Shown: piece by piece, positions 1,256-52,425 of the stretch
How positions within the stretch are numbered: the first letter of the stretch is position 1
How the letters are laid out: every line of letters starts with the position of its first letter
Assembly (NCBI GenBank): GCA_963726745.1
Contig: CAVSDR010000006.1
Coordinates: 768,001 to 832,000, forward strand
DNA length: 64,000 nt
Origin: an uncultured Verrucomicrobiae bacterium
GTDB taxonomy: Bacteria > Verrucomicrobiota > Verrucomicrobiia > Chthoniobacterales > UBA10450
Direction of reading: 5' to 3'
The notes under the pieces: model-generated
Told to the model about the DNA's origin: nothing
What the model saw: the letters and a program-made list of their open reading frames with translations, nothing else
The model's database searches: none
Position numbers and translations under genes: made by a program

Positions 1256-2929
1256 ATGGCACAAATGCAGGAACTGCTCGCGAAATCGTTTCGCGAATTC
1301 AAAGAGGGTAGCATCGTCAAGGGACGCGTCCTCGAAATCCGCCCCCGCGAAGTCATGGTCGACATCGGCTATAAATCCGAGGGCATCATCCCCGCGCACG
1401 AGTTCGACGATCTCGACTCGATGGAAGTGGGCGACGAAGTCGAAGTGCTCCTCGAGCGTCTCGAAAACGACGAAGGCATGGTCATCCTCTCGAAGGAGAA
1501 GGCCGCCTATCGCCAGAACTGGAACAAGATCGCCGCGGTCTTCGCGGGCGACGGCCTGATCAAGGGCAAGGTGAAGTCGGTCGTCAAAGGCGGCCTCATG
1601 GTCAACATCGGCGTCGAGGCATTCTTGCCCGCGTCGCAGATCGACATCATCCCGCCGAAGGATCTCCAGCAATTCGTCGGCAACACCTACGATTTCAAGA
1701 TCGTCAAAATCAACGACGACCGGAAGAACGTCGTCCTCTCCCGCCGCGAGCTCATCGAGCAGGAGCGGAGCGAGAAGCGCCAGAAATTCCTCGAAGGCGT
1801 CAAGGTCGGCGACATGGTCAACGGCAGCGTCAAGAACCTGACCGACTTCGGTGCCTTCATCGATCTCGACGGCATGGACGGCTTGCTCCACATCACCGAC
1901 ATGACCTGGGGTCGCCTCGGCCACCCGAGCGAATTGCTCAAGGTCGGCCAGCCGCTCGAAGTCATCGTGCTCGACATCAACAAGGAGAAGGAGCGCGTCT
2001 CGTTAGGCCTGAAGCAGACCCAGAAGAATCCCTGGGATCAAATCGAAGAGCGCTTCCCCGCCGGCCAGAAGGTCAAGGGCAAGATCACCAACCTCGTGCC
2101 TTACGGCGCGTTCGTGGAACTGGAAGAAGGCGTCGAAGGCCTCATCCACGTCTCCGAGTTGTCCTGGACGAAGCGCATCATGCGTCCTTCCGATGTCCTC
2201 ACGCAGGGCCAGGAAGTCGAAGCGGTCGTGCTTGGCGTGAACAAGGAAGAGCAGAAAATCTCGCTCGGCCTGCGTCAGCTCGAAGCCAATCCATGGGATG
2301 AGATCGAGAAGAAATTCACCATCGGCAGCCGCGTAAAGGGCCAGATCCGCAACATGACCGCCTACGGCGCGTTCGTGGAGCTGGAAGACGGCATCGACGG
2401 CATGATCCACGTCTCCGACTTGAGCTGGACCCGCAAGATCAATCACCCGTCGGAAGTCTTTAAGAAGAACGACGAGGTCGAAGCCGAAGTCATCGACATC
2501 GACAAGACCAACCAGCGGATCAGCCTCGGCATTAAGCAACTGAGCGACGATCCGTGGAAGGAAATCGATCAGAAGTACAAGATCGGCGATCTGGTGAAGG
2601 GCAAAGTGACCAAGCTCGCGAGCTTCGGCGCCTTTGTGCAATTAGCCGACGACATCGACGGCCTGGTCCACATCTCGCAGCTGAGCGAAGAGCACGTGAC
2701 CAAGGTGAAGGACATCCTCAAGGTCGGGCAGGAAGTGGAAGCCCGCGTGATCAAGGTCGACAAAGTCGAGCGCCGCATCGGTCTCTCGATCAAGGCCGCG
2801 AACTACAGCGAGGAAGACCTCAAGCGCGAATCCGAAGCGTTCGACAATCTCCGCCCCGGCGAAGACATGGTCGGCCTGGAGAAAGCGTTCGAAGCCGCCG
2901 AGGAGGACTACCGTCCCGGGCAGAAGTAA
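1256..2929 (+). CDS. rpsA: 30S ribosomal protein S1
   Basis: 557 aa with repeated S1 domains (FGAFIDLDGMDGLLHITDMTW, YGAFVELEEGVEGLIHVSELSW). Confidence 0.99.
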   Translation: MAQMQELLAKSFREFKEGSIVKGRVLEIRPREVMVDIGYKSEGIIPAHEFDDLDSMEVGDEVEVLLERLENDEGMVILSKEKAAYRQNWNKIAAVFAGDGLIKGKVKSVVKGGLMVNIGVEAFLPASQIDIIPPKDLQQFVGNTYDFKIVKINDDRKNVVLSRRELIEQERSEKRQKFLEGVKVGDMVNGSVKNLTDFGAFIDLDGMDGLLHITDMTWGRLGHPSELLKVGQPLEVIVLDINKEKERVSLGLKQTQKNPWDQIEERFPAGQKVKGKITNLVPYGAFVELEEGVEGLIHVSELSWTKRIMRPSDVLTQGQEVEAVVLGVNKEEQKISLGLRQLEANPWDEIEKKFTIGSRVKGQIRNMTAYGAFVELEDGIDGMIHVSDLSWTRKINHPSEVFKKNDEVEAEVIDIDKTNQRISLGIKQLSDDPWKEIDQKYKIGDLVKGKVTKLASFGAFVQLADDIDGLVHISQLSEEHVTKVKDILKVGQEVEARVIKVDKVERRIGLSIKAANYSEEDLKRESEAFDNLRPGEDMVGLEKAFEAAEEDYRPGQK

Positions 2930-2961
2930 GCCGCACCGCAGATCGCTGCGAGAAATTCAAT

Positions 2962-2998
2962 CGGGGAGGCAACGCGTGTTGCCTCCCCGGTTTTGTTT
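2962..2998 (+). terminator. Intrinsic terminator of rpsA
   Basis: 12-bp stem cggggaggcaac/gttgcctccccg with 4-nt loop followed by ttttgttt. Confidence 0.85.
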
Positions 2999-3262
2999 CG
3001 GGACGAGAACGCGCGCGGGCGTCCCGCAATTAATCACCGCCACCCCGCGATCAAGGCACTCGGCAACGCGGGCTCCTTTAATCTCGATTTGCCGCCGACA
3101 CGCTGCTGAAGCGCATCCGCTCGGCCGGCGGCATGAATTTCTGCTCCGACGGGAACGCCAAGGGCACCATCGATGGTGGTGACGCGTTGTTGTGCGCTGC
3201 CAAGAAAAGGCGGCCTTAGGGCGATTGGAACGTGTAGGTAAGTTGCGCTATGGTCGTCACTT

Positions 3263-3278
3263 CGGCACGGCTTTTGCG
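3263..3278 (+). promoter_or_regulatory. Putative sigma54 (-24/-12) promoter
   Basis: cGGCACggcttTTGCg: exact GG-N10-GC spacing, 20 nt upstream of ATG 3298. Confidence 0.65.
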
Positions 3279-3297
3279 CATTTTTTCAATCTCATCC

Positions 3298-5519
3298 ATG
3301 CGCTTTTGCCTCGTTGTTCTATCTCATTGTCTCCGTTAGCCTGCGGCCTGCGCGTGCCGATACCGCGATCACGTTTACCCGCGCCGAGGTCACGACCATG
3401 GCCGGTCTGTGGGAAACCGATTCGATCGCGCTCACGCCGCTCGCGAACTCGCAATACCCCGCCTATTCGAGCAACTGGCAGTTCATCTTTCCGCATACCA
3501 GCGTCTCCGGCGACGGCGATATTCACAGCGACATGGCCGTCGACAGCAGCGGCACCGGGAAAGCTGGGAACAACAGCGGCGCCTCGCCCATCGTCACCGA
3601 GGTGATCAACGCCACCTCCGCGCAACTCACGGCGCTCAATACCCGCAGCGGCCGCCAGCAAATCTTCCGCGGCATCTTTCGCTTCTATACCGAGCACGCG
3701 TCGGAGCGGCACTTCGAGCTCCATCCGGTGACGGAGTTGCTGGCCTACAACGGCTCCAGCTTCGTGCCCGACCTCGATTACCACTCGAATATCTACGCCG
3801 ACCCGAACGGCACGACGCACTCCGACAGCACCTTGCTCGGCCTCTTTAATGGGGCCCAAAAAGTCACCGCCACGATCGGGAGCGATAACAACCAGGTCGC
3901 TTTCACCTTCGCCAGCCCAAGCGTCAACTACGCGCAGTTCAACGGGGTCGCTTTGAGCGCGGTGCAGAACGATGGCGTAAGCCAGTATTTCCTTTTCCAA
4001 CCCTCGATCTCGCCCACGACCACGGTGCGCTGCCGGCTGGTGGCGAACACCGCCGCCGCGACGGCCGCCGCCGGCTTAAGCGCGAACCAGTCGCTCACGG
4101 TCAATGTGCTGACTCGCACCGACATGGGCGCCGTCGCTTCGCAGATTTCTCCGCTGACCGCCGGGCAAAGCAAAACCTTCCCCCGCCCGATCGAGTTGAT
4201 CGTGCTCGGGGTGCTCAACGTCGGCCCCGGCGGAACCCCAACGCCTACGCCTTCGCCCACGGCGTCGCCCACGGCCACCCCTTCGCCGTCACCGACGGCC
4301 ACGCCCACACCGACGCCCGGCGCGGGTCAGGTCTTCACCAGTGCGAGCTCGATCGGCTTGAGCGGAAGCAACGGCGGCCGCAGCCTCCCTTACCCCGCGG
4401 CGATCAACGTCAGTGCCGTCGTTGGGAAAATCACCAAGGTGAGCGCGCGGCTAAACAACGCCAGCCAGCCGAGCAGCAGTTGGGCGCTCGATCTTCGGAT
4501 CGTCCTCGTAGGGCCGACCGGTCAAAGCGTAGCCTTGATGTCGAACGCCGGCGGCTCCTACTCGCTTGGCGGGGTGACCGTCACCTTTGACGATGCCGCC
4601 GCGAGCGCGCTCCCGAAAACCAGCGCGATCGCCACCGGCAGCTATCGACCGGCGAACTACACCAGCGGCAGTCTCAACATGCCGTCGCCTGCGCCCAGCG
4701 CCACGCCCGGGAGCACCTTGGCGCTATTCAATGGCAGCAATCCCAAACGGCACCTGGAATCTTTACATCTACGACAGCTACAGCTCCGGCAGCGGCTCGG
4801 TCGCGGGCGGCTGGAGCCTCACCTTCGAGACGCAAGCGGTCGCGCCAGACGTGCTCTCGAAAGCCGCGACCACGGTCCGCAGCAGCAGCGCGATCTTGAA
4901 TGGAACGGTCAATCCCTTCGGACAGCCGACAACCTGGCGTTTCCAGTTTGGCCCGGACGCCAATTACGGGAACGATCAGCCATGGCAAAATGCCGGCAGC
5001 GGCACCGCGGCGGCCAATGTCAGCGTGCCGCTGACCGGATTGCTACCGGCGACGACCTATCACTTCCGCCTGGCGGCGACGAATGCCACCGGCACGACTA
5101 ATGGCGCCGATCTCAGCTTTACCACCCCCGCCGCGGTCGACTCCGATGGCGATGGCATGCCGAACGATTACGAGACCGATAACGGCTTCGATCCCGCCAA
5201 TGCGGCCGACGCCGCGCTCGATGCGGATGGCGATGGGATGACCAATCTCCAGGAATACCTTGCCGGGACAAACCCGCGCGTGGCCGCCAGCGTGCTTCGC
5301 CCCACGTCGGTCCTGCGCGATGGCGAGGATTTTGCCATCACCTTCCCCTCGGTCCTTGGGAAAATGTATCGCGTGGAAGCCGCGGAGAGCACCGCCGGGC
5401 CTTGGATGACGTTGCAGGACCATCTTCCCGGCACCGGCGATCCGCTGCTCGTGAGCGACACCGAAGCGTTCGATCTGCACCCGCGCCGCGTTTATCGCAT
5501 CAGCGTGGTGCAACCCTGA
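3298..5519 (+). CDS. Large secreted multidomain protein: unknown N-domain, Pro/Thr linker, proprotein-convertase P-like domain, Fn3-like domain, DxDxDG Ca-binding repeats (two apparent frameshifts)
   Basis: Removing one T near 3305 gives signal peptide MRFASLFYLIVSVSLRPARA; removing one A near 4747 joins NGSNP to NGTWNLYIYD (ORFs 3314..5101 and 4587..5519); DSDGDGMPNDYE and DADGDGMTNLQEYLAGTNP. Confidence 0.75.
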
Positions 5520-5529
5520 CGAGCACGCG

Positions 5530-6114
5530 CTAAAGCGGCAGCTGCAGCTTCAGCTCGCGGTTCTCGGCGAGGGCCGTTTCCAGTTCCTCGACGCGTGCGT
5601 TCAGGCTTTCCTGGAGCGCGAGAATGCGCGCACCCACGCTTAAACGAGCGCGCAATTCCTCCTTATCGAAGGGCTTGGTCAGGTAATCATCCGCGCCGGC
5701 ACGCAGGCCTTCGACCAGCCGTTCTTTCCCGGCGCGCGCCGTGAGCAGGAGGATGTAAACCGACTTGCTGATCTCGCGCAGGCGCCGGCAAATCTCCGGG
5801 CCTTCCATTCCCGGCATCATCCAATCGAGGATCGCGAGCACCGGCTCGTTTTGCGCGCGCAGCGCTTCCATCGCTTCGCGCCCATCCGCCGCCACGATCA
5901 CCTGGTAACCCCACTTCCCCAAAGTGCTGGCTAAAATTTCCCGGGAGACGGCGTCGTCTTCCGCGACCACGACTTTGCGCAGCGCGGCCAGGCCAGCATC
6001 GGTCTTTTCGCCGAGGCGCGTCTCAGGCAGCGGCGGCGGCAAGACCGCTGCGGGCGGCGGGGCCAGCTCCGGCCCGGCAATGTTCCAGCTCGGTGAGAAT
6101 GGGATCGATTTCAT
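5530..6114 (-). CDS. Response-regulator receiver domain, probably the C-terminal part of the upstream hybrid kinase
   Basis: [33 protein letters not shown]; no output domain; overlaps the kinase ORF by 92 bp. Confidence 0.85.
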
Positions 6115-8401
6115 ATTTTAGTTCTGCGATGCGCTCGTCCAACCCGGCGAGCTGTTGAGTCCCGGCAAATTCCTCAATCTCGGCCGCGACCTGTGCCGCC
6201 TGCGTGGCGCCGATGTTGCCTAACGAGCCGCGCAGCGTGTGCGCCCGGCGTGCGATCGCCGGCGCATCGCCGGCCGCGTGTTCCTGCTCCAGCTGCGCGA
6301 GCAATCCCGGCGTGCCCTCGAGGAATAACTCCGCGACCCGTGCGAGCAATTCCTCGTCGCCGTCGAATTGCGCGAGCAGCTGCGCGGTCGAGAACGCACT
6401 CCGCGCGGCCGGCTGACCAGCCACCGGCACGCTCGTGGCCAGGCCGCACAGGCGATCGACCGCGGCGCGAACTTTCTCCAGGGAAACAGGCTTCGAGATG
6501 TAATCGTCCATCCCCGCGGCCAGGCAGCGCTCGCGATCGTCGGCGCCGGCGCGCGCGGTCATGGCAATGATCGGGGTGTGGCGGCCGAGGCGGGTTTCGT
6601 TTTGGCGAATGCGAGCCGTCGCCTGGAGGCCATCGAGTTCCGGCATTTGCACGTCCATCAGGATGGCGTCGTAACGCTGCCGCCGCGCGAGCTCGACCGC
6701 TTCGCGGCCGTTCGTTGCCTGGGCGACTTCGTGCCCGTCCTTCGCGAGAATGCCGGAAGCGACCGCGCGATTGACGGCATTATCATCCACCACCAGGACC
6801 TGGAGCGTGATCATCGGCCGCGTCACGGATACGGCGCTCGACGGGGTCTCGCGTCGCGCAGGCGCGGTCTCGGCCGTGGCCAGGCCGACGGTGAAATGGA
6901 AAGTGCTTCCGGCATTGGGCGCGCTTTCGAGCGCGAGGCTGCCTTTCATCAAGGCCACCAGCTGCATGGAAATCGACAGCCCCAGGCCGGTGCCGCCGTA
7001 TTCCCGCGTGGTCGAGGAATCCGCCTGCGCGAACGCCTCAAAAATCAGCGCCTGCTTCTCGAGCGGAATGCCGATGCCGGTGTCGCGCACGGAGAAGCGC
7101 AACCCCACCTCGGCGCCGGCCACTTCCGCGGTCTGCACTCGCACTTCGATCCGGCCGGCCGGGGTAAACTTGATCGCGTTTTCGATCAAGTTCATCAGCA
7201 CCTGCCGCAGGCGCATGGCGTCGCCGGTGACGTACTCCGGCACCGCCGGGTCGACGGTGCACTCGAGCGTGAGGCCCTTGGTGCGCGCGCGCGTGGCCAG
7301 CGGACGGACGGTTCGCTCGAGCACCTCGTGGAGCGAGAAAGGTCGCGCTTCCAGGAGTACGCGGCCGGCCTCGATCTTGGCGAAATCAAGCAGCTGATTG
7401 ATCAACTCCAGGAGCCCGTCGGCCGAGTGCTTCACCATGTCGAGGTAATCGCGCTGCGTGCTCGAAAGCTCGGTTTCAAGCGCGAGCGCGGTCACGCCGA
7501 TGATGCCATTCAGAGGCGTGCGCACTTCGTGGCTGATGTTCGCGAGGAAGTCGCTCTTGGCTTGGTTTGCGGCCTCGGCGTGTTCCTTCGCGCGAACGAG
7601 TTGCTCGCGCCGTTCGGCCAGGAGAACGCTCGCTTCCGCGCAGGCCAGGCCCAGTTTTCCAATCTCGTCGTTGCCCTTGATCGAGATCCGCAGCGGCCGC
7701 TCGTCCTTCAAGGCCTCGGCTGCTTCTGCGATCATCTCCAGCCGGCGCACGACGCTGCGAGAAAAGAGTGTGACCGCGCCGATCCCGATGCCGACGCCGG
7801 CAAACAAAATGAGCGACAGCGCCAACGCGGTGTTCCGGGCGACGGCGGCAGCGCGCTGCTGGCGCACGCCGAGCAAGCGGTCTTCCTCGGCCAGGAATTC
7901 CTGCACGGTCTCGCGCACGGTTTGCATCACCTGGTTTCCCTCCTTTAGCTTGGAGCGCAATTCCTGCGGCGAACGTCCGGCGCCAAACTCGCGCAAGACC
8001 AGGTCGATGAGATCAAGCCGACGCTGGACCATCGGGCGAATGAGGTCGCGAAGATGGTCGGTTTGCAAAGGGTTATCCGAGACCAGGTCGGCGAGATCGG
8101 CGATCGCATGCGGCAATTGCCCCGCCGCCCGGTCTTGCGGCGCGAGGAAGCTCGGGTCGCTCGTGAGCAGATAGCCGCGCATTCCGGTCTCGCTGTCGAC
8201 CAGCAAAGTCAGGAGCAATTGCGCCTGCTGTTTAACCTGGAAGGTGTGGCTGACCCAGCGACCGGCCTCGGCATTCTTGTGCTGCGCGCCGAAGAAAAGG
8301 GCCGTCACCAAAAGCATCGCCACGATCGGTCCGGCGAGGACGATCAGGCTTTTGACCCGGATGGAGAGGTTACGCCAGCTGGCGTGGACGAGAGCGAACA
8401 T
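6023..8401 (-). CDS. Hybrid sensor histidine kinase CHASE3-(HAMP)-HisKA-HATPase-REC-Hpt
   Basis: Two TM helices; [12 protein letters not shown] (CHASE3); [56 protein letters not shown] (Hpt). Confidence 0.95.
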
Positions 8402-8461
8402 GCACTTTTGCGGAAGCTGCTCCGTCCTAAGCAGCTTGCGTGCACAGCCTGAGAGCGCTGG

Positions 8462-9850
8462 CTAAAATTCCGCGCTGCCGGGGGTGCGGGCGAAGGGGAT
8501 CACGTCGCGAATGTTCCCCACCCCGGTGACAAACATGAGCATGCGCTCAAACCCGAGCCCAAAGCCGGCGTGCGGCACGGTCCCGTAGCGGCGCAGGTCG
8601 AGATACCATTTGTAATCCGCCGGATCGAGCTGGTGCCGGCGCATGTTCGCTTCCAGGATCTCGAGCCGCTCCTCGCGCTGGCTGCCGCCCACGATCTCGC
8701 CGATGCCGGGCACGAGCACGTCCATCGCGGTCACCGTGGCGTCGTCGTCGTTCAAGCGCATGTAGAACGGCTTAATTTCCTTCGGATAATTGAAGACCGT
8801 CACCGGACACTTGAAGTGCTTCTCGGTGAGCCAGCGCTCGTGCTCCGACTGGAGATTGGCGCCGTAGGCGACGGGGAATTCGAACTTCTCGCCGCTGTCA
8901 GTCAGCAACTTCACCGCCTCGGTGTAGCTGATCCGCTGGAACGGCCGGTCGAGGACGAAGTCGAGCCGCGCGAGCAGTTCCTTGTCGACGAATTTGCCGA
9001 AAAGCTCGAGCTCGTCCGGGCAATGCGCGCGGATGTCGCGGATGAGGTATTTCACCAGCTCCTCGGCCACGTCCATGTTGCCGCCTAAATCGCAGAAGGC
9101 CATCTCCGGCTCGATCATCCAGAACTCGTTCGCATGGCGCGAGGTGTTCGAGTTCTCCGCGCGGAAGGTGGGGCCGAAGGTGTAGACGTTCTTCAAAGCG
9201 CAGGCAAAAGCCTCGGCCTCGAGCTGGCCGCTGACGGTGAGGTAGGTCGAGCGGGCAAAGAAATCCTGCGCGTAATCGATCTCGCCGTTTTCCTTCTTCG
9301 GCGGGTTCTTGGCGTCGATCGTGGTGATGCGGAAAAGTTCGCCGGCGCCCTCGCAATCGCTCCCGGTAATGATCGGCGTGTGGATGTAAACGAAGCCGCG
9401 CTCCTGGAAGAAAGAGTGGATCGCGTAAGCCAGCCGGCTGCGCACGCGGAAGACCGAGCCGAAGAGATTCGAGCGCGGGCGCAGATGCGAAATCTCACGT
9501 AGAAACTCGGGCGTGTGCCCTTTCTTCTGCAGCGGATACGTGTCGTCGGAGGGCCCGACGATCGTGATCTCCTCGGCGATCACCTCCCAGGCCTGGCCTT
9601 TCCCCTGCGACGCGACGAGCTGTCCACGCACAGAAATCGAGGCGCCGGTGATGAGGTGCTGGACCTCGGCGTAATTAGACAGCGAATCGCGCGCGATGAT
9701 CTGCAGGTTCTTGAGCGAAGAGCCGTCGTTGAGCTCGATGAAGGAAAAGCCCTTCGAGTCGCGCCGGGTGCGCACCCAGCCCTGGATCAGGATCGCATCA
9801 GCCGGTTCCGCGCTTTGCAGCGCCGCCTTTACTCGCGTCGGAGAAATCAT
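8462..9850 (-). CDS. asnS: Asparagine--tRNA ligase
   Basis: GWVRTRR OB-fold, YLTVSGQL, FGPTFRAENSNTSRH, HAGFGLGFER; start taken at MISPTRV. Confidence 0.97.
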   Translation of the reverse strand: MISPTRVKAALQSAEPADAILIQGWVRTRRDSKGFSFIELNDGSSLKNLQIIARDSLSNYAEVQHLITGASISVRGQLVASQGKGQAWEVIAEEITIVGPSDDTYPLQKKGHTPEFLREISHLRPRSNLFGSVFRVRSRLAYAIHSFFQERGFVYIHTPIITGSDCEGAGELFRITTIDAKNPPKKENGEIDYAQDFFARSTYLTVSGQLEAEAFACALKNVYTFGPTFRAENSNTSRHANEFWMIEPEMAFCDLGGNMDVAEELVKYLIRDIRAHCPDELELFGKFVDKELLARLDFVLDRPFQRISYTEAVKLLTDSGEKFEFPVAYGANLQSEHERWLTEKHFKCPVTVFNYPKEIKPFYMRLNDDDATVTAMDVLVPGIGEIVGGSQREERLEILEANMRRHQLDPADYKWYLDLRRYGTVPHAGFGLGFERMLMFVTGVGNIRDVIPFARTPGSAEF

Positions 9851-9905
9851 CGGAGCGCACTTTCGCGGCAGCGCGGCATCCGACAAGTGAAACGACAACC
9901 AGCGC

Positions 9906-34602: not shown

Positions 34603-34613
34603 GAAGGTGCGGA

Positions 34614-42746: not shown

Positions 42747-43333
42747 TGACCCGACTCCTCGTCCTCTTTCTCGTCACCGCGCCGTCGCTCGCTTTTGCGG
42801 CGGAGCCGAAAGTGAACGCGCTCCAGTTCTCCGGCCCGGCCTGGTCGCCCTATCTCGTCGGCGCGGGCATCGGCGTGCTCAGTTGGTTCACCTTTTACTT
42901 CGCGAACAAGCCAATCGGCGCCTCGTCCTTCTACGCGACCGTCGCGGGCGGCATCGGCCGGCTCTTCGCGCGCAAGCACACCGACTCGCTCGAGTATTAC
43001 AAAGACAACCCGCCCAAGCTCGGCTGGGAAACGGTGCTCGTGCTCGCGACAATCGCGGGCGCGTTCATCTCTGCGAAAACAGGCAGCGAGTTCACCGGCG
43101 AATGGCTCCCGCCGTTTTGGGTCGCGCGTTTCGGCGAGCAATCCTTCGCGCTCCACGCCGCTCTCGGCCTCGCCGGCGGCGTCCTGATGGCGTTCGGCGC
43201 GCGTTTCGCCGGCGGCTGCACCAGCGGCCACGGCATCAGCGGCGCGCTTCAGCTCAACCTCGGCTCGTGGATCGCCGTCATCTGTTTCTTCATCGGCGGC
43301 ATCGCCGTCGCCTACCCGCTTTACCTCTTATGA
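42743..43333 (+). CDS. YeeE/YedE sulfur-compound transporter half
   Basis: WSPYLVGAGIG; GARFAGGCTSGHGISG. Confidence 0.92.
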   Translation: MMTRLLVLFLVTAPSLAFAAEPKVNALQFSGPAWSPYLVGAGIGVLSWFTFYFANKPIGASSFYATVAGGIGRLFARKHTDSLEYYKDNPPKLGWETVLVLATIAGAFISAKTGSEFTGEWLPPFWVARFGEQSFALHAALGLAGGVLMAFGARFAGGCTSGHGISGALQLNLGSWIAVICFFIGGIAVAYPLYLL

Positions 43334-43916
43334 TCGACCCCGGTTCTGCCGTGAAAAAAGGGAGCGAAAAACCCGAGGCCGCGATCGCCCCGCCGGCCAA
43401 GCTCTTCCTCGCGCTCGTCGCCGGTCTCGCCTTCGGTTTCCTTCTGCAAAAGGGCGGCGCGGCCAAGTTCAACATCCTCATCGGCCAGCTCCTCCTCCAG
43501 GATTGGACCGTCGCGAAGATCATGCTCAGCGCGATCGTCGTCGGCATGCTCGGCATCTACCCGCTGCACGCGGCGGCGAAGGTGAACCTCCACCTGAAAC
43601 CGACCCGCCTCGGGCCGCAGATCATCGGCGGGCTCGTCTTCGGCGCCGGCTTCGCACTCATCGGCTACTGCCCCGGCACCGCCGCGGCCGCGCTCGGCCA
43701 GGGAAACTTCGACGCGCTCTTCGGCATGACCGGCCTCGTCATCGGCTCCTATCTTTACGCGGAATCTCCGGCTGGCTGAAGCGGATGGACTGGAAAGACC
43801 TCGGCAAAGTCACCCTGCCCGACACGATCAAGGTCGCGCGCCTCCCCTTTGCCCTCGGCTTCGCGGTTCTCCTCATCGGCGTTCTCTTCGCGCTCGAAAA
43901 GCTGACCATTCGTTAG
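43330..43916 (+). CDS. YeeE/YedE sulfur-compound transporter, second half (frameshift near 43765)
   Basis: GLAFGFLLQKG; GGLVFGAGFALIGYCPGT. Confidence 0.9.
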
Positions 43917-43924
43917 GCAGCGAG

Positions 43925-44683
43925 ATGGCACTCGCGCTGGCATTGGCGGTCTTGATCGGGCTCTCGCTCGCGCTTCTCGGCGGCGGCGGATCGATTATCA
44001 CCGTGCCGGTGCTGGTCTATGCGGCCGGGCAAACGCCGCAGGAAGCGGTCCCGATGTCGCTCGCGATTGTCGGCGCGGTCAGTTTGCTCGGGACATTGCA
44101 GAAAGCACGTGCCGGCCTTGTGCATTGGAAAGCGGTCTGGGCCTTTGGCGGCGCCGGGGTTCTCGGCGCGGCGCTGGGCGCGCAAGGAACCGCGCTGGTT
44201 TCGTCGCGCGTCCTCATGCTCATCTTCGCCGCGCTCATGCTCGGCGTGGCCGTGAACATGTGGCGCCGCCCGCACGACCTCAAAAAGCGCGATGCCGAGT
44301 GTCATGTCGGCCGCTGTCTCGCGGCTGGGTTTGCCGTCGGCGCGCTCACCGGATTCCTTGGCGTCGGCGGCGGTTTTCTGCTCGTCCCTGCGCTCGCTTA
44401 TTTCGCGCTCCTGACCACGCCGATGGCGGTCGGCACTTCGCTCGCCATCATTGCGATCAACTCGATCGGCGGCCTGCTCGGCCACTGGAGCGCCGCCGAA
44501 GGACAATGGACCCGGATCGCTTGGTTCCTCCTCGCCGCCGTCGCCGGCATGATCATTGGCCTGCCCTTGGCCGGACGGATTTCTCCGCGGCAGTTGAATC
44601 GCGCCTTCGCGGTCTTCGTCGTGCTCGTGGCCCTCTTCGTTATCGGCCAGACGCTGCTCCATCCGCAGGCCGCACAATTTTAA
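43925..44683 (+). CDS. Sulfite exporter TauE/SafE family
   Basis: LLGGGGSIITVPVL; GFLGVGGGFLLVPAL; AVGTSL. Confidence 0.93.
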   Translation: MALALALAVLIGLSLALLGGGGSIITVPVLVYAAGQTPQEAVPMSLAIVGAVSLLGTLQKARAGLVHWKAVWAFGGAGVLGAALGAQGTALVSSRVLMLIFAALMLGVAVNMWRRPHDLKKRDAECHVGRCLAAGFAVGALTGFLGVGGGFLLVPALAYFALLTTPMAVGTSLAIIAINSIGGLLGHWSAAEGQWTRIAWFLLAAVAGMIIGLPLAGRISPRQLNRAFAVFVVLVALFVIGQTLLHPQAAQF

Positions 44684-44703
44684 ACCACGAACCGAAAGGA
44701 CCC

Positions 44704-45147
44704 ATGAAAGACCTGAAGAAATTAAACGACCGCATCACCATCGGCGGCCAGCCGAGCGCGAGTGAGATCGAGGAACTAAAGCGCGACGGCTTCCGCACGA
44801 TCGTGAACCTGCGAACCGAAGGCGAAGACGACCAGCCGTTGAGCCCGGACGAGGAAGGGAAAGCGGTCGAGGCGGCCGGGATGAAGTATGTCCACTTCCC
44901 GGTTTCGAGCGCGACGATGACCCCGGAGATGGTCGATCAGTTCCGCGAGAAATTGCCGAAACTGGACGGCCCGGTCCTGGTGCATTGCCACGCCGGCATG
45001 CGCGCAGGCGCCTTCACCATGATGGCGACCGCGGTCGAGGAAGACTGGAGCGGCGAAGAAACCCTCGCGAAGGCGGAGGCGATGGGCTTCAAGTGCGAAG
45101 CGCCGCAGCTCCGGCAGTTCGTCAGCAGCTACGTCGATAATCATTGA
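44704..45147 (+). CDS. DUF442-type phosphatase-fold sulfurtransferase
   Basis: ITIGGQP, GFRTIVNLRTEGE, GMKYVHFPV, VLVHCHAGMR (CX5R). Confidence 0.85.
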   Translation: MKDLKKLNDRITIGGQPSASEIEELKRDGFRTIVNLRTEGEDDQPLSPDEEGKAVEAAGMKYVHFPVSSATMTPEMVDQFREKLPKLDGPVLVHCHAGMRAGAFTMMATAVEEDWSGEETLAKAEAMGFKCEAPQLRQFVSSYVDNH

Positions 45148-45162
45148 GCGTGGCAACTTGTC

Positions 45163-46688
45163 ATGCGCTGGTGCTTCGCTGCTCTCCTTTCGTTCCTTTG
45201 CTCGCGATGAGTGTGCAGGGCGAGCCGCGGCGCATCGTGCTCCTGCACACGAACGACATCCACGGGCACATCACCGCGTGGCGCGGCTGGGAAGGTGAGC
45301 TCGCCGGCAAATCAGTCGGCGGGTTCGACCGGCTCGCGGCCGCGGTAGAAAAAGAACGCGCGCAGGCCGGCGCCGACCGCGTCCTCCTGCTGGACGCGGG
45401 CGATGCGATCGGCGACACCATGCTGGCCGACCTGACGCAAGGTGCGGCAGTGCTCGAGTGCATGGCGGCGCTCGGTTACGACGCGATGACGCTCGGCAAT
45501 CACGAGCCCGACTTCGGCGTGGCGACGCTGCGCCGTTACCTCGGGGAAGGGAAAGTGCCGATGCTGGCCGCGAACGTCCGCGAGAACGGCGGGAACTTCG
45601 CCACGCAATTTCAAATCAAGGAGGTCGGTGGCGTAAAGGTCGGCTTGCTCGGGCTGGCCTATCCGAACACGCCGCTCACGACCGCACCGAAGAACGTCGA
45701 AGGCCTGGCGTGGGAAGCGGATTCCGCGGCGGTCGTGCGCCGGCTCGTGCCGAAAATGCGCGCGCAAGGCGCGGAGCTCATCGTCGTCCTCTCGCATCTC
45801 GGCCTCGGCGCGGATAAGACACTCGCCGAAGCCGTCCCGGAAATAGACGTCATCGTCGGCGGTCACAGTCACAACCGCATGGAGCGCGCGCTCGCAGTTG
45901 GCTCGACCTTGATCGTGCAAGCCGGTGCGCATCTTTCCGACCTCGGCGTGCTCGAGCTCGCGGTGGAAGCCGGCCAGGTGACCGCGCACCAGCGGCGACT
46001 TATCCCGCTCACAGGCCCGGCCGATCCCGCCATGACCGCGCGGATCGCCAAAATCCGGAAGCCTTTCGCGGCCCAGCTCGATGAGTCGTTAGGCGAGGCC
46101 GCCGAGCCGATCGTCCGCGCGCAAACTCTCGCGGGGACGGACGCGCGTCAGCGCGACGAGCAATCGCCGGCTGACTCGCTCTTTGCCGACATCCTCCGCG
46201 CGAAAACAGGGAGCGAAATCGCGCTCCTGCCCGGCGTCGGCTACGGGGTAGCCATTCCGGCCGGACCGATCACCGCTGAGATGCTGCGCAACCTCGTGCC
46301 GCACGACGGCAAGGTTGTGACCATGACGCTGACCGGCGCGCAGATCCGCGAGATTCTGCAGCAGGCAGTCGAGAACAGCTACAGCAACGACCCGCAGCGG
46401 AAGGTCGGCGGGATGATCCAGGTGAGCGGCCTGCGCTTCACCCACGACGAGAAACGCGTGCTCGAGGATTCGTTAGACCCGAGCCGCACCTATCGCGTCG
46501 CGACCAACTCCATGCTCGCGCAAGGCGGCCATCGTTACCGCACGTTCCGCGACGGCGGCGACCGCGCCGAGCAGGGCGGACAATTTCAAACGATCGCTGA
46601 TTGGATCAAAACCGAGAAAAGAGTGAACGCGCCCACCGATGAACGCATCTCACGAAAGACCGCCGGAGCTCCCGCCCCGCAAAAATAA
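45163..46688 (+). CDS. Exported metallophosphoesterase / 5'-nucleotidase family protein (SoxB superfamily)
   Basis: LHTNDIHG, DAGD, GNHE, LSHLG, GGHSH, QVSGL, YRVATN; probable signal peptide from ATG 45163 needing one frameshift. Confidence 0.88.
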
Positions 46689-46692
46689 CCTT

Positions 46693-47271
46693 ATGAAATC
46701 GAAAAACATCGCCCTCGTTGTCTTCGCCGTCGGGCTCGGCGTCCTCACCTGGCGCTCGAGCAACGCCTCCTCCGGCGGCGCCTGCTTCGCCCGCCTCTTC
46801 CCCACCTCTTCGCAGGTGCGCCCGATCGCGAACACCGAGGGCGCCGGAAAAGCCGCGCCCGCCTTCGAGTTGAAGGATCTCGAGGGCAAAACGGTCAAGC
46901 TCTCGGACTTCAAGGGGAAGGTCGTGCTCCTGAATTTCTGGGCCACCTGGTGCCCGCCCTGCCGCGAGGAGATCCCCGACCTCGTCGCTTTGCAGAACGA
47001 ATACAAAGACAAGGGCCTGGTCGTGCTCGGGGTCTCGTTAGACCAAAACGGACCCGCGCAGGTGAAGTCGTTTGTCAGCCGGATGAAGATCAACTACCCG
47101 GTAGTCATCGGGGACGAGAAGATGGCCATGAGCTACGGCAGCATCCAGGCGATCCCGACGACCTTTTACATTGATCGTGCCGGCAAAATCGCCGGCATGC
47201 ACGAAGGCGGCGCGGACAAGGAAATGTTTGAGCAGGCCGTGAAACCACTCCTCGAAAAACCAAGCGCCTAA
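46693..47271 (+). CDS. TlpA-family thiol-disulfide oxidoreductase
   Basis: N-terminal anchor; LNFWATWCPPCREEIP; AIPTTF. Confidence 0.93.
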   Translation: MKSKNIALVVFAVGLGVLTWRSSNASSGGACFARLFPTSSQVRPIANTEGAGKAAPAFELKDLEGKTVKLSDFKGKVVLLNFWATWCPPCREEIPDLVALQNEYKDKGLVVLGVSLDQNGPAQVKSFVSRMKINYPVVIGDEKMAMSYGSIQAIPTTFYIDRAGKIAGMHEGGADKEMFEQAVKPLLEKPSA

Positions 47272-47273
47272 CC

Positions 47274-47696
47274 ATGAAAAACCTACTCGCATTTGCCCTT
47301 CTCGCCTTCATGAGCTCCAGCCCACTCGCCGCCGCCGAAATCGCGAAACACCGTGTCCTCTTCGAGGTCACGATGGGCGGCGAAGAGCAGTGGACCGGCG
47401 TGCTGAACAACGTGAAGAACGTCCGAGCCGCGCTCGGCGCCGAGTCCACCGAGGTCTTCGTGGTCGCGCACAGCAACGGCCTCGGCCTGCTCCTGCAAAA
47501 GGAAAACAAATTAGCCGACCGGATCAAGGAACTCGCTGGCGAAGGCGTTATCTTTGCCGCCTGCGAGAACACGATGAAGAAGAAAAACGTGACCAAGGCC
47601 GACCTCCTGCCGGCCGCGACCACGGTCGATTCGGGCGTGGCCGAGGTGGTGCGGAAACAGGAAGCCGGCTGGAGTTACCTCAAGTCGGGGAGCTGA
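47274..47696 (+). CDS. Exported DsrE-family protein
   Basis: Signal peptide; VVAHSNG, FAACENTM, SGVAEVVRKQEAGWSYLK. Confidence 0.9.
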   Translation: MKNLLAFALLAFMSSSPLAAAEIAKHRVLFEVTMGGEEQWTGVLNNVKNVRAALGAESTEVFVVAHSNGLGLLLQKENKLADRIKELAGEGVIFAACENTMKKKNVTKADLLPAATTVDSGVAEVVRKQEAGWSYLKSGS

Positions 47697-47709
47697 GCTA
47701 GCTGCCTGC

Positions 47710-49137
47710 ATGGCGCAGAAGACAATCGCGATTCTCGGCGGTGGCTCGGCGGGACTGACGGCAGCGCGGACCGCGCGGGAATTCGGCGCGCGCGTGCTGC
47801 TTTTTCTCGGCCGTCGCGGCGCGGCGGCTTCGCTTTGCATCGAACGCGGCTGCATGCCGTCGAAAGCGATGTTCGAGCCGATCGACGCGATGCACCACGC
47901 GAAGCGGCACGGCTGGCTCGAGGTGCACCCGCGGGAGCCGGAGCAATTCCTCGCCCAGATCGTGGCTTGGAAAGATCGCGAGATCGATCGCTTCCGTTGC
48001 TTCCGCGAGGAGGAACTGGAGCGGCTGCACTGTCCCGACTTCCAAATCATCCCGCGCGACGCGCGTTTCAATGGTCCTAACGAAGTGGACGACGGCGAAC
48101 AGCGGTATCGTTTCGACGCGGCCATCATCGCCACCGGCTCGGCGAATTCGATCCCAGCGGAAGTGCATGTGCCGATCGGCCCGGACGGCGTCTGGACAAA
48201 CAGCGAGATCCTCGCGAACACGAAGCTTCCGCGCACGCTCGCGGTCATCGGCGGCGGACCGATCGCGCTCGAGTTTTCGCTCCGCTACGCGCGGCTCGGC
48301 TGCGCGGTCACGATTCTTTCGCGTTCGAAGTTGCTGTCTAAATTTCCCGCGAAATTCGGCGAGCGTCTTCAGCAAATTTACGAACGTGAAGGCTTGCGCA
48401 TCCTGACGGGACACAATCTCCTGGCGCTGGATCGCGCGGAGAATGGCAACTTTTCCGTGCGCACGAAAAGCGCCGCGGCCGGCGAGGAAACGTTCACCGC
48501 GGAGCGCGTTCTCCTCGCCACCGGGCGGCATCCGATTCTCGAAACGCTGAACCTTGGTGCGGTCGGCATCGAGCCGGGCAAGCACGGCAAGCTCGAGGTC
48601 GACGACGATATGCGCGTGCGCGGCCAACGGCACATCTTCGCCGCAGGCGACGTGGCCGGCCTACGCATGGTGGTGCACCAGGCGCACATCGAAGCCGGCA
48701 TCGCGGCCGAGAACGCAGTGAAAGAAAGCGATCGCCGATGGGAGCGGCGCTCAAACATTCAGGTGGTTTTTTCCGATCCCGAATTTGCCTTCGCCGGGAT
48801 GAGCCGCGAAACCGCCGAGAAGAAAGGCCTGGCCGTCGCCACCGCGGAAGGGGAGAGCGCCGATGTCGGCAAGCTGCACCTCGCGGGCGACGATCTCGGC
48901 TTCGGCGAATTTGTCGCCGACCGGGAGAGCGGCCGCCTCCTCGGCGCGGGCCTGCTTTGCAGCGACGCGGCCAATCTCATCCACCTGCCAGCCTACGCGA
49001 TCGACCACGAGCACACGGTCCACCAGCTCGTCACCGGCGAATATTATCACCCGACGAAAACTGAGATTGTCTCGGAAATAGGCGACGCTCTCTGCCGCGA
49101 GCTCGGCGGCACGCCCTTCTGCCGGGCGGGCGAGTAG
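47710..49137 (+). CDS. Class-I pyridine nucleotide-disulfide oxidoreductase (Lpd/MerA-like)
   Basis: ILGGGSAG, CIERGCMPSK, IATGS, GGGPIALE, ATGR, AAGD, YHPTKTE. Confidence 0.92.
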   Translation: MAQKTIAILGGGSAGLTAARTAREFGARVLLFLGRRGAAASLCIERGCMPSKAMFEPIDAMHHAKRHGWLEVHPREPEQFLAQIVAWKDREIDRFRCFREEELERLHCPDFQIIPRDARFNGPNEVDDGEQRYRFDAAIIATGSANSIPAEVHVPIGPDGVWTNSEILANTKLPRTLAVIGGGPIALEFSLRYARLGCAVTILSRSKLLSKFPAKFGERLQQIYEREGLRILTGHNLLALDRAENGNFSVRTKSAAAGEETFTAERVLLATGRHPILETLNLGAVGIEPGKHGKLEVDDDMRVRGQRHIFAAGDVAGLRMVVHQAHIEAGIAAENAVKESDRRWERRSNIQVVFSDPEFAFAGMSRETAEKKGLAVATAEGESADVGKLHLAGDDLGFGEFVADRESGRLLGAGLLCSDAANLIHLPAYAIDHEHTVHQLVTGEYYHPTKTEIVSEIGDALCRELGGTPFCRAGE

Positions 49138-49183
49138 ACGGCGCGCAGTTGCCGCCGGCGAGCTTTGCCGCGATGGATGCCGC

Positions 49184-50044
49184 ATGCTGATCGAAACGCA
49201 CGCGCATCTCGATTATCCGGATTTCGCCCCGGACTTTGACGACGTTCTCCAGCGCGCAGCCGACGCCGGCGTGACGCGGATGATCACCATCGGCACTTCG
49301 CTCGCGAGCAGCCGGCGCGCGGTCGAGCTGGCGGAAACACACGACCACATCTACGCGGTCATCGGCGTGCATCCGACGGCGGAGGACGAGACCGCGGAGG
49401 ACGTGATCACCCCTCTGCGCGAGCTGGCGCAAAGCCCGCGGGTGGTCGCGATCGGCGAGACCGGTTTGGATTACCATCGGCTCCCGAGCGTGGAGGCGGC
49501 CAAGGCGAAGAGCGTGCAGGTGGCGCACGCGTTGCAAGGCGAGACCGACGCGGACATCGAGGCCGGCTTGCATGATGGCGCTTACAAGTCGCGGCAGGCG
49601 AGTTTGTTTGAGCAACAGCTTGATCTCGCGGTCGAGCTGCGGCTGAACGTGGTCATCCACCAGCGCGATGCCTGGGAAGATACGCTGGCGATTTTGCGGC
49701 CTTACGGCCGGCAGCTCAGCGGCGTCTTCCATTGCTTCGGCGGGACGCGGGCGCAGGCCGAGGAAGTGATTGCGCTGGGCCACCTGGTTTCCTTCACTGG
49801 GATCGTGACCTTCAAGAACGGCCAGCAGGTGCGCGAGGTCGCGGCCCAGCTCTCGTTAGGCGAATTTATGGTCGAGACCGATTGCCCGTATCTCGCGCCG
49901 GTGCCTTTTCGCGGGAAGCGCTGCGAGCCGGCGCATACCCGGCTGGTCGCGGAGACGATCGCGCAAGCGCGCGGGATTTCGCTCGAGGAAGTGGCGCGCG
50001 CGACCACCGCGACCGCGGAGGAATTTTTCCGATTCAATCGATGA
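49184..50044 (+). CDS. tatD: TatD-family hydrolase
   Basis: ETHAHLD, GVHP, IGETGLDY, IHQRDA, FHCF, ETDCPYLAP. Confidence 0.95.
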   Translation: MLIETHAHLDYPDFAPDFDDVLQRAADAGVTRMITIGTSLASSRRAVELAETHDHIYAVIGVHPTAEDETAEDVITPLRELAQSPRVVAIGETGLDYHRLPSVEAAKAKSVQVAHALQGETDADIEAGLHDGAYKSRQASLFEQQLDLAVELRLNVVIHQRDAWEDTLAILRPYGRQLSGVFHCFGGTRAQAEEVIALGHLVSFTGIVTFKNGQQVREVAAQLSLGEFMVETDCPYLAPVPFRGKRCEPAHTRLVAETIAQARGISLEEVARATTATAEEFFRFNR

Positions 50045-50646
50045 TGCGTTTCCTCTGTCTCCTCGTCTTCATCTCGCTGCTTGTTTCCTGCACGACGCCG
50101 GACACGCGGCATCGCGTGGTCATCAGTGTGCCGGAGCAAAAAATGGCTGTGCTCGAAGATGGCGCGCCGGTGGCGACCTATCCCGTTTCGACCTCGAAAT
50201 TTGCGATCAGCGATGCGCCCGGCAGCCGCGGCACTCCGCTGGGTGAGCTGGAAATAGCGCGCAAGATCGGCGATGGCGCGCCGCTCGGCGCGGTCTTCAA
50301 GGATCGCCGCCGCACCGGCGAAGTGCTCCTGCCGGATGCGCCCGGGCGCGATCCGATCGTGAGCCGCATCCTCTGGCTGCGCGGCCGCGAGGCGCGCAAT
50401 CGCAACGCCTTCGACCGCTACATCTACATCCACGGAACCGCGGAGGAGCGGAACATTGGCCGGCCAGCCAGCTACGGCTGCATTCGCATGCGTTCGCGCG
50501 ATGTGATCCGCCTTTACGAAATCGTGGGCGAGGGCGCGCGCGTGAGCATCTTGAATGAGCCTCTCTCCAGCGCGCTGCCGGGCCTGGCGTCGTCGCGAGA
50601 ATTGCTCGCCGGGGAAGCGCCCTTCCAGGCGCCCACCGGAAATTAG
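50041..50646 (+). CDS. L,D-transpeptidase (YkuD) lipoprotein
   Basis: Lipobox LVSC; YPVSTS, TPLG, IYIHGT, SYGCIRM. Confidence 0.92.
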   Translation: MMRFLCLLVFISLLVSCTTPDTRHRVVISVPEQKMAVLEDGAPVATYPVSTSKFAISDAPGSRGTPLGELEIARKIGDGAPLGAVFKDRRRTGEVLLPDAPGRDPIVSRILWLRGREARNRNAFDRYIYIHGTAEERNIGRPASYGCIRMRSRDVIRLYEIVGEGARVSILNEPLSSALPGLASSRELLAGEAPFQAPTGN

Positions 50647-50697
50647 GCAGCGCTTTCGGACGCGCCGGGGAACGCGCCCTGCTAAATCGGTTGCTGG

Positions 50698-52425
50698 ATG
50701 TCCAGTCGAGATCAGAATGCGAGCGCACGGAAAACCCACCTGCATGCCGAGCGTTTTTTCGTGCGCGTCGGCGTGGGCATATTTCTCGCGGTCCTTCTGA
50801 TTGCGGGGCTGTTCTGGGGCGGCCGAGCCGCGTTCTCCCGTGTGCAGCGGCATCGCTTACTCCAACAGGCGCATGCTTCGCTCGAAAAAGGCGATGCGCA
50901 TTGGGCCATCACGGCGGCCCGCCGGGTTTACGAACTGGATCCGCACAATGTGGAGGCGCTGCGAATCCTGGCGCAGATCAGCGAAAAAAGCGGCTACGCC
51001 GCGGCAGTGGATTGGTGGCAGCAAGTGGTGCAGGCGGCACCGGGCTCGGTGCCGGACGGGATCGCGCTGGCCCGGAGCGCAGTTCATTTCAAACAATGGC
51101 GCATCGCGGAGGAGGCCTTGCGCCAGATGGCGAGCAAGGCCGGCGAACTACCGGACTATCATAAAGTAAAGGCGGAGTTGGCGGAGGCGCGTGGAGATAG
51201 TGCGACGGCCGAAAAGGAATTGGCCGAGGCGCTGCGGTTAGCCGGACACAACGACGACCTGGCGATCGATCTGGCCTTGGCGCGCCTAAAAGAAGAGGCG
51301 CCGGAGAAGCGGGAGCAAGCACGCCAGACGCTGCGGGAATTCATGGGCCAGGAGGCGACGCGCCTGCGGGCTGCCCGGGCTTTGCGCCGGGACGCAGCGG
51401 AACGACGCGAGCTGCATTCGTTAGTCGAGCTGGCCGCAACGACAGCGCGCTACCCTGAGGCGGATTTTGCCGACCGGCTGTTCCAGGTGGCGATGCTCCA
51501 TGAATTGCAGATGGCGGATTTCCCCGAGGCGCTCGCGATTTTGCAGCAGGAAGCTGCCGGCGAGCCCGCCAAAGCCTTTGCCCTCCTGGATTGGATGAGC
51601 ACTTCGCGGCTCTCTCTGCTGGCGCTGGAGTGGGCCAAGACGTTGCCCGCAGAAATGTCCACGCATCCGCCGGTGCCGCTCGCGCTGGTTCACTGCCATG
51701 CGGCCCTGCACGATTGGGATGGCCTGGCGTACTTTTGCCGGAGCGGAAACTGGGGAGCGCTGGAACCACTGCGCCACGCCGCCGCGGCGCGAGCCCTGCG
51801 CGAGCGTGGGGACAGCTTGGAAAGCCGAACGGAATGGGCGCTGGCCCTAAAGGCAGCCACAGACTCGAACAAGCTGCTCGCCCTCGAGCAGGAAGTGGCC
51901 ACGTGGGGATGGAAAGAGGAAGCGATCGACCTTCTTTGGACCCTGGCGAAAGATGCGGAGAAGCAGGAGATCGCCCTCAGCAGTCTGTATCGCTACTACG
52001 CCGAAAGCCGCGAGACCGGGGAAATGTATCGCGTCGCCGTGCGGCTGCTGGCGTTGCGCCCACAGGATCCCGTGGCGCAGAATAATTTTGCGCAGCTCGC
52101 GCTCCTGCTTGAAGTCGACCGGCCGAGGGCCACGGAGGTGGCGGCGCAATTATATCAAAACGAACCCGGCCAAGCGGCCTTCGCTTCGACTTATGCCTAT
52201 GCGCTGCATCTGCAGGGAAAAACGGCCGAAGCGCTCCGCATTATGCAAAGTCTGCCTCCGGAAGACCTCCGCCAACCGGCCATCGCCGCGTATCAAGGCA
52301 TTTTCTTAGCCAGCAACAACCGCCCAGCGGAGGCAGCGGAATACCTGGCCTTAACCGGGAACGCGACTCTTCTGCCCGAAGAGGAAGCTGCTATCAGCAA
52401 AGCGCGAGCGCGCCTTTTGCACTGA
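50698..52425 (+). CDS. Membrane-anchored TPR-repeat protein
   Basis: N-terminal TM; helical repeats (LDPHNVEALR, RPQDPVAQNNFA, STYAYALH); ends LLPEE. Confidence 0.8.
   Translation: MSSRDQNASARKTHLHAERFFVRVGVGIFLAVLLIAGLFWGGRAAFSRVQRHRLLQQAHASLEKGDAHWAITAARRVYELDPHNVEALRILAQISEKSGYAAAVDWWQQVVQAAPGSVPDGIALARSAVHFKQWRIAEEALRQMASKAGELPDYHKVKAELAEARGDSATAEKELAEALRLAGHNDDLAIDLALARLKEEAPEKREQARQTLREFMGQEATRLRAARALRRDAAERRELHSLVELAATTARYPEADFADRLFQVAMLHELQMADFPEALAILQQEAAGEPAKAFALLDWMSTSRLSLLALEWAKTLPAEMSTHPPVPLALVHCHAALHDWDGLAYFCRSGNWGALEPLRHAAAARALRERGDSLESRTEWALALKAATDSNKLLALEQEVATWGWKEEAIDLLWTLAKDAEKQEIALSSLYRYYAESRETGEMYRVAVRLLALRPQDPVAQNNFAQLALLLEVDRPRATEVAAQLYQNEPGQAAFASTYAYALHLQGKTAEALRIMQSLPPEDLRQPAIAAYQGIFLASNNRPAEAAEYLALTGNATLLPEEEAAISKARARLLH

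Follow-up and report, generated by a model that had tools for sequence, protein, structure and literature searches.

A short asymmetric word dispersed through the genomes of one Chthoniobacterales family, and an AP2-like protein as its candidate reader

Why should one asymmetric heptamer be written again and again into the genes of a bacterium, on both strands and through several reading frames? The question is raised by a stretch of 64,000 nucleotides from an uncultured Verrucomicrobiae bacterium, referred to here as the window (positions 768,001 to 832,000 of contig CAVSDR010000006.1, GenBank assembly GCA_963726745.1), in which a sequence-only reading had reported 24 copies of TCGTTAG/CTAACGA. 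A recount bears out that figure, along with 16 copies of the 8-mer TCGTTAGG (10 on the plus and 6 on the minus strand) and 14 of the 9-mer TCGTTAGGC; in the earlier list the minus-strand 8-mer starts lie 1 base below the 7-mer starts because the eighth base is included. In 100 dinucleotide shuffles of the window, the 7-mer occurs 3.2 times on average and at most 8 times. The word and its preferred flanks, called motif A below, are genome-wide and not peculiar to the window, and a small AP2-like protein, P0019, is the best candidate for reading them.

Motif A in the source genome and its relatives

The source genome (G000; 3.41 Mb, 7 contigs, 64% GC) contains 2,025 copies of the 7-mer, 1,514 of the 8-mer and 1,312 of the 9-mer, compared with background expectations, calculated with the sites masked, of 41-55 7-mers and 5-10 9-mers, and motif A is its top-ranked word at k = 7-9 under an order-3 Markov model. 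Other G numbers denote relatives and g numbers genera; "the family" is the Chthoniobacterales family of uncultured soil bacteria that includes G000, whose place in that order is borne out by the protein names of relatives, and family-wide tallies take in the unpublished genomes G001, G008, G045, G155, G243 and G277, with only the G045 variant described below depending on one of them. Motif A density is 0-3 per 10 kb in regions of G000 below 61% GC and 6.7-8.4 above 63% GC. The low-GC islands and rRNA genes of G000 are devoid of the motif, as is the rRNA stretch of the window, where the last site ends at 51,424. A low-GC polysaccharide gene island on contig C7 (~50,000-90,000) has nearly none.

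The profile of ~2,100 sites in G000 is wnnwC-TCGTTAG-GC, with TCGTTAG as its core. Single changes within GTTAG bring the counts down to background, and the flanks are graded (TCGTTAGCC, for example, occurs 240 times and TTGTTAGGC 121 times). The earlier proposal that protein coding fails to explain the word, and that it represents a DNA-level signal, is upheld: the 2,940 genes called in G000 by a simple purpose-made gene caller hold 971 9-mers, whereas three types of codon shuffle (eight of each) leave means of 10.5, 21.6 and 62.4. The enrichment therefore holds genome-wide against both a Markov model and codon shuffling, the comparison that reading had asked for, and codon bias is rejected as the source of motif A. 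Likewise, a motif acting at the RNA level is rejected, as the genic 9-mers show no sense-strand bias (525 sense, 446 antisense); their density is 0.34/kb within genes and 0.36/kb between genes. Motif A writes 449 of the 761 SLG and 240 of the 384 PN[DE] tripeptides of G000, and PNE and SLG rank third and fourth for over-representation among tripeptides (244 versus 95 and 761 versus 462, respectively).

The number of sites per gene follows a near-Poisson distribution, with 1,721 genes having none versus 1,756 expected. Pairs of 9-mers 13-200 bp apart are depleted in G000 (32 versus ~98 expected), both orientations alike, with recovery by 300-600 bp. Terminator-type inverted pairs are not in excess, there being 4 opposite-orientation pairs less than 30 bp apart among 2,018 neighbours. 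Replichore polarity was not seen (825 versus 789 with respect to the G-rich strand, compared with 181 versus 50 for a KOPS-like control), and the Chi-like role that had been considered for the word falls away with it.

The relatives G072 and G140 share 85.7% identity over 137 kb of alignment. Leaving aside 10 sites with gaps, 118 of the 166 gap-free sites are identical, compared with 40% of all 7-mers, so that motif A is kept between species at orthologous positions, a check likewise proposed at the outset. One base differs in 25 of the remaining sites and at least two differ in the other 23; among these 48 discordant sites are 4 with differences at 5-6 of the 7 bases. TTAG is retained in 130 of 149 cases within motif A and in 60 of 202 outside it. 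Sites also recur at permissive positions and alter residues; the speA peptide HSLGY, present in 5 of 85 sequences, is always encoded via motif A and occurs in two separate clades. From this conservation and recurrence it follows that motif A is actively maintained at the DNA level; it is also blind to strand and frame and saturates at short range.

All 250 family genomes searched contain TCGTTAGGC, in 13-4,633 copies, the poorest being near background, and 16 genomes from other families of Chthoniobacterales have 1-19 copies. Outside the family, 252 genomes of the class were searched; 249 of them contain 0-24 copies, and the other three, from genus g138, contain 61-134, the copies in one of these (G466) being dispersed. 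Motif A marks one Chthoniobacterales family. Among sequencing runs, a search listed one weak DNA match and no RNA match. A search of the literature, confined to main texts, found no published description of motif A or P0019, in agreement with the earlier statement that no such motif was known to have been described for the lineage; surveys in supplements could already list motif A.

The motif A sites of the window are listed below with its other features and two loci elsewhere on the contig. The reading frames first assigned to the sites (SLG, including the rpsA site at 2000, PN[ED], LT, VR and R-stop) are confirmed.

2000..2008, plus: motif A 9-mer TCGTTAGGC in rpsA (S-L-G); 7-mer also at the same place in G072 and G016
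6218..6226, minus: 9-mer, sensor kinase gene (S-L-G)
14318..14324, plus: 7-mer (TCGTTAGAC), intergenic
19422..19430, minus: 9-mer, His_biosynth gene (hisF-like; S-L-G); common to G018, G015 and G140
19852..19860, plus: 9-mer, antisense in hisA-like gene (L-T)
22322..22330, plus: 9-mer, antisense in HAD hydrolase gene (P-N-E)
23888..23896, plus: 9-mer, antisense in hisD (L-T)
24274..24282, plus: 9-mer in hisD; G018 and G015 differ at 3 of 9 bases
24644..24652, minus: 9-mer, 5' part of frameshifted hisD or its edge
25770..25777, minus: 8-mer, hisI/hisG region (V-R)
30579..30585, minus: 7-mer making a stop codon (R-stop)
31216..31224, plus: 9-mer, antisense in Usp gene (P-N-D); absent from 11 aligned relatives
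33097..33105, minus: 9-mer (S-L-G)
33338..33346, plus: 9-mer, antisense (P-N-E)
40288..40294, minus: 7-mer, fabH-like gene (L-T)
40575..40581, minus: 7-mer, arsR-like gene, at its stop codon
41252..41258, plus: 7-mer outside called genes
43910..43918, plus: hybrid site, a 9-mer at a stop codon that scores for motif B too
46086..46094, plus: 9-mer, 5'-nucleotidase gene (S-L-G)
46470..46476, plus: 7-mer (S-L-D)
47035..47041, plus: 7-mer (S-L-D)
48076..48083, minus: 8-mer (P-N-E)
49853..49861, plus: 9-mer, tatD-like gene (S-L-G)
51418..51424, plus: 7-mer (S-L-V)
59..63167: motif B (see below), 70 matrix matches, none in rRNA genes
18314..26137: kdsA-his block; identity to G018/G015 88-90%, flanking blocks 68-87%
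51425..64000: stretch without motif A, including 23S and 5S rRNA genes (56032-59240)
G000:C6:137354-137719, minus, same contig outside the window: P0019 gene (AP2-fold, 121 amino acids), motif A on both sides
~C6:736,600-744,800, same contig, 23-32 kb left of the window: cassette array, 15 attC ends, no integrase

Frameshifts, probably assembly indels, lie in hisA (window 19844-20612), hisD (23487-24526), a gene for a secreted protein (3314-5519) and recA (G000:C6:172199-172988).

P0019 as a candidate reader

P0019 was picked among the small basic proteins of G000. It comprises 121 amino acids, with an AP2-like domain of the plant type followed by a lysine-rich tail, and its sequence, read directly, starts without a signal-peptide-like stretch. 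Searches recovered it from 90 of 100 genomes of the family and from none of 108 genomes representing 15 other families of the order. The ten family genomes without it are all seven of genus g21 (including the unpublished G045), G059, G068 and G130; a broad profile matches nothing in the last three, and in two of the g21 genomes what it matches is distant. The median density of the 9-mer is 28 per Mb in genomes without P0019 versus 122 in those with it, and 9 of the 11 motif-poorest genomes are among the former.

Motif A also accompanies the P0019 gene itself. In G000, one copy lies ~10 nucleotides before the ATG, and another overlaps the stop codon. Across the family, 14 of 29 orthologs, from four genera (7/7 in g1, 3/3 in g37, 2/2 in g18 and 2/2 in g45) and including those of the motif-poor G002 and G019, have T[CT]GTTAG 1-24 nucleotides ahead of the start, directly 3' of sequence that by eye is promoter-like, compared with 41 of the 2,940 genes of G000 that have T[CT]GTTAG so placed; this comparison left out nine distant AP2 homolog loci. 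The three g138 genomes have the top-scoring P0019 homologs of the class, with an identical KQTHGFQV strand, and GTTAGGC lies upstream of the homolog in G482 and just past its stop in G466.

In the predicted structure, two strands (29-35, 38-44) and a helix (52-68) have pLDDT values of 88-92, and the sheet packs on the C-terminal helix. The best structural matches are AP2 domains, and the Pfam AP2 family (PF00847) is matched by 16 of 55 homologs, at best with E 1e-10. The sheet-plus-helix fold is shared with known AP2 proteins such as Plasmodium SIP2-DNA (6SY0) and PF14_0633 (3IGM), whereas P0019 consists of one such domain on its own, plus an H1-like tail, and is kept vertically in a bacterial family.

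AP2 domains typically bind short asymmetric sites. On the comparative evidence above, P0019 probably binds motif A (preferred form wnnwCTCGTTAGGC): its one AP2-type domain would read the non-palindromic word in double-stranded DNA, next to a lysine/arginine-rich tail like that of histone H1, and P0019 may repress its own gene via the site beside its start. The case is less developed for the further proposal that P0019 is a sequence-directed nucleoid protein, which would coat or compact a few hundred bases round each site; we consider the chances of such a nucleoid-type function to be about even. In that case, a weak benefit from each site could load permissive codon positions throughout the genome up to the point where the footprints of adjacent sites overlap, and we infer that the ~130-250-fold enrichment needs just a few units of population-scaled selection per site. 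Among the roles named in the sequence-only reading, that of a nucleoid-protein site has received the most direct evidence.

Several points weigh against binding by P0019, its nucleoid role, or both. The structural matches have weak scores (Foldseek E 0.4-2.3; VIA Z no higher than 4.8), and Pfam gives no match to P0019 itself. The upstream site is missing from 15 of the 29 orthologs, including those of the motif-rich G055, G043 and G062, and in G054 and G079 it is present only as a one-mismatch copy. Motif density varies ~50-fold (26-1,355 per Mb) among genomes with P0019, and a range in site density of at least 30-fold argues against an essential structural role; in addition, the denser relatives G072 and G140 show shorter, weaker self-avoidance, only below 50 bp, on small counts. 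AP2-type homologs occur in 82 of the 252 non-family genomes, nearly all of them without motif A, and the scores of the g138 homologs may be inflated by close relatives in the query alignment. Kin are not independent: a single genus accounts for seven of the ten genomes without P0019, and every gene acquired at the same node as P0019 would be distributed in this way. A second AP2 protein, for the other dispersed word of G000 (motif B, see below), was not found in that genome. Furthermore, because integron attC ends often have a nearby ATG (within 0-12 nucleotides in 78 of 155 family attC ends), the upstream site of P0019 could be a fossil cassette junction.

Related and other small proteins were also noted. 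Some members of g53, another Verrucomicrobia genus, have up to seven single AP2-type domains per genome, and in the distant homologs P0160 and P0176 the same AP2-like domain is fused to a TIR domain, which suggests DNA-sensing defence proteins. The small proteins of G000 include a SWIB protein and two paralogous basic winged-helix-like proteins (G000:C3:581048-581353 and C2:186300-186500), one of them near xerD/xerC, which are candidates for other words.

Uptake, integrons, methylation and artefact as sources of the word

We regard it as rather unlikely that motif A is an uptake signal of the kind represented by the DNA uptake sequence (DUS) of Neisseriaceae and the uptake signal sequence (USS) of Pasteurellaceae, whereby a surface receptor favours fragments bearing the word and biased uptake with recombination spreads it, other receptors serving motif B and a third word, motif C. 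DUS and USS are, like motif A, conserved non-palindromic 9-10-mers with lineage variants that lie in genes and enrich tripeptides (PMC2817400, PMC2397512, PMC7811141, PMC1939737). The statistics also agree, with up to ~1 copy/kb, both strands used and doubled tripeptides (PMC2817400), as do the scarcity in rRNA and foreign DNA (PMC7811141) and the higher conservation amid slightly more variable surroundings, with multi-base gains (PMC2397512). G000 encodes comEC, dprA, 16 prepilin-motif genes and several PilB/PilT-like ATPases, a 7.8-kb motif-rich block has been exchanged between species of the genus, and saturation over a few hundred bp fits short fragments. However, no pilin receptor tracks motif A in the one PilX-like family examined, which was not found in the very motif-rich G013, G024, G134, G061 and G062 and has no solved-structure match. 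DprA and a ComEA-like protein are also present in the motif-poor G059 and the outgroup G028, and the ComEA-like protein of G000 (a nuclease-HhH fusion in relatives) is truncated (C4:17230-17874), with an HhH remnant at C2:230178-230267. Predicted terminators contain about half of all DUES (10.1101/2025.10.24.684340), whereas inverted pairs of terminator type are almost absent for motif A. Unlike DUS and USS, several unrelated words coexist independently in one genome, and A-B and A-C pairs show no mutual avoidance, which a single saturable uptake step would predict. Moreover, the protein that does track motif A, P0019, looks cytoplasmic. The nucleoid and uptake readings could be joined if DNA with the site survived or recombined more readily when the protein is bound to it.

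Overlooked at first was the identity of motif A with the ends of integron attC and attI sites. An origin in integron biology, in which motif A is the R-box end of the family's attC/attI sites and its dispersed copies represent conversion scars, secondary sites of the integrase or sites of a host factor that at first took part in cassette recombination, is nonetheless improbable. The R box has the consensus GTTRRRY, and in family att sites the identical 7-mer spans the recombination point: TCGTTAG ends 153 of the 155 attC near 20 family integrases and is present in 17 of 20 inferred attI sites. Its sharing by motif A and attC is, in our judgement, unlikely to be chance. An integron integrase is present in 66 of 100 family genomes, G000 has its 15-attC array, the P0019 gene starts like a cassette, and some gains, namely the 4 discordant sites noted above, resemble block replacements. 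Set against this, attC sites have L and R boxes and an AAC triplet (PMC12614218), whereas at the dispersed sites there is no hairpin partner, L box or inverse core, and GC is favoured at the place where attC favours AT. TCGTTAGAT, the most frequent form of attC, has 7 copies in G000, each within the array, and only ~20 of the 2,025 sites fit the attC-end pattern, 15 of them in that one array. Position -5 is mostly A in dispersed sites and T in 97% of attC, and this flank mismatch rules out direct copying from attC. Other families have the same attC end and no dispersed word. Integrase presence is rejected as a cause, as it does not match motif density: the enzyme is present in G059, with 13 copies of motif A, and was not found in G000, G083 or G024, G000 having only XerC/XerD-like recombinases. 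Finally, close pairs differ mainly by single bases, and there is no fixed A-B spacing of attI type. The attI regions of the family have a TTAGAC box 29-57 bases upstream of the recombination point, together with internal inverted repeats.

It appears very improbable that a methyltransferase marks motif A and that methyl-directed repair ratchets copies in, saturating within repair reach, as proposed for HIP1 of cyanobacteria (PMC4390886). The HIP1 repair model predicts saturation near one site per kb (PMC4390886), MutS-like and MutL-like genes are present, and motif C holds GATC. HIP1 has been portrayed, like motif A, as hyper-abundant, conserved in all frames, lineage-variable in abundance and of open function, with a proposed role in chromosome structure (PMC5861425, PMC4390886, 10.1101/2024.09.10.611283); HIP1, however, is palindromic, is tied to methyltransferases and has conserved one-off variants, whereas motif A is asymmetric, with core one-off variants at background. 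Among the enzymes examined (PF00145, PF01555 and one N6 enzyme), no methylase was found to match motif A. The single conserved orphan N4/N6 methyltransferase is rejected as the cause of motif A, being present also in 11 genomes of three motif-free families, and C5 and type I-like enzymes sit in defence-type islands. Divergence is not lower beside shared sites (0.146-0.151 within 50 bp versus 0.127-0.133 at 300-1,500 bp), so that no repair halo is seen round them. A long, graded, non-palindromic profile is also unlike a methylase site. The idea of a modification site, another of the roles first proposed, is thus weakly supported at best. The orphan enzyme (G000:C3:981293-982042) is found in 10/10 family genomes, and GTAC, the most avoided 4-mer (0.16 of expected), is its possible target.

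Codon bias, an artefact of base calling and a polar signal of the Chi/KOPS type can be dismissed as next to impossible: the assembly does contain probable indel errors, with frameshifts in hisA, hisD and recA, and Chi and KOPS are likewise short, asymmetric and over-represented, but motif A occurs in many independent assemblies, whose contig names point to short reads, and at orthologous positions (which disposes of the artefact envisaged in the sequence-only reading), survives codon shuffles, has no replication polarity and avoids itself regardless of orientation.

Other words, gene exchange and meaning

A second independent dispersed word of G000, more abundant than motif A and likewise passed over earlier, is motif B (rAWWTWGcCRRCRMnWTS), which is quasi-palindromic and ~17 bases long, with 4,636 matrix matches (~4,600-5,800 sites), 3,850 of them in genes versus 360-370 in shuffles. 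It is nearly private to G000, a stricter pattern matching 1,310 times there, 328 times in G015, 287 times in G045 and 14-113 times in the other 98 genomes. A variant in G045, TTAGcCRRCnCGMTC (TTAG joined to CCRRCnCGMTC), occurs at ~0.75/kb and mixes features of A and B; it rests wholly on that unpublished genome. Across about eleven other genera of the family, most genomes contain 430-4,941 copies of motif C, TGTCGATCT(T), a word that includes GATC; it reaches 1,700/Mb there (G088, G068, G076 and G062 are examples) and has roughly 36-135 copies in g1, g18, g28 and g37. B and C each self-avoid at short range and ignore A; therefore, each word seems to have its own reader, as would also be expected if they behave as proposed for motif A, although no reader of B or C was found.

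The kdsA-his block of the window (18,314-26,137) indicates how such words may be used to trace gene exchange. In G018 and G015, this block has 11 and 9 B sites per 7.8 kb, compared with 0.10-0.23/kb elsewhere, and motif A at 0.77/kb, compared with 0.17 and 0.06/kb elsewhere. Because these are the densities of A and B in G000, the G000 lineage was presumably the donor in an interspecies replacement of the block, which represents one event. Whatever the mechanism, motifs A, B and C serve as binning markers and as stamps of transfer direction, as with this block.

A broader proposal, tentative and more doubtful than not, is that several independent chromosome-marking proteins each wrote their own word into host genes at about one per kb, and that the word of the AP2/H1-tail protein was taken from an integron site, its gene possibly having arrived as a cassette and the attC ends having since shifted off the preferred form; the GGC form is found in 34 of 146 family attC and in 15 of 17 attC in two outgroup genomes. 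If this broader proposal is true, motif A would be the first highly iterated bacterial word linked to an intracellular AP2 reader, and the words would act as lineage stamps showing donor and recipient in gene exchange. Few groups are known to have genome words repeated on this scale, and the function of HIP1 is still open. If P0019 binds motif A, it would form part of a sequence-directed, histone-like system strong enough to alter protein sequences, and bacteria would have a new way to mark or pack their own chromosome. Named relatives of the family include Candidatus Udaeobacter, which are abundant soil bacteria. A further word may be present in G091, where TTGTAGGGC occurs 9 times in 100 kb versus 0.4 expected.

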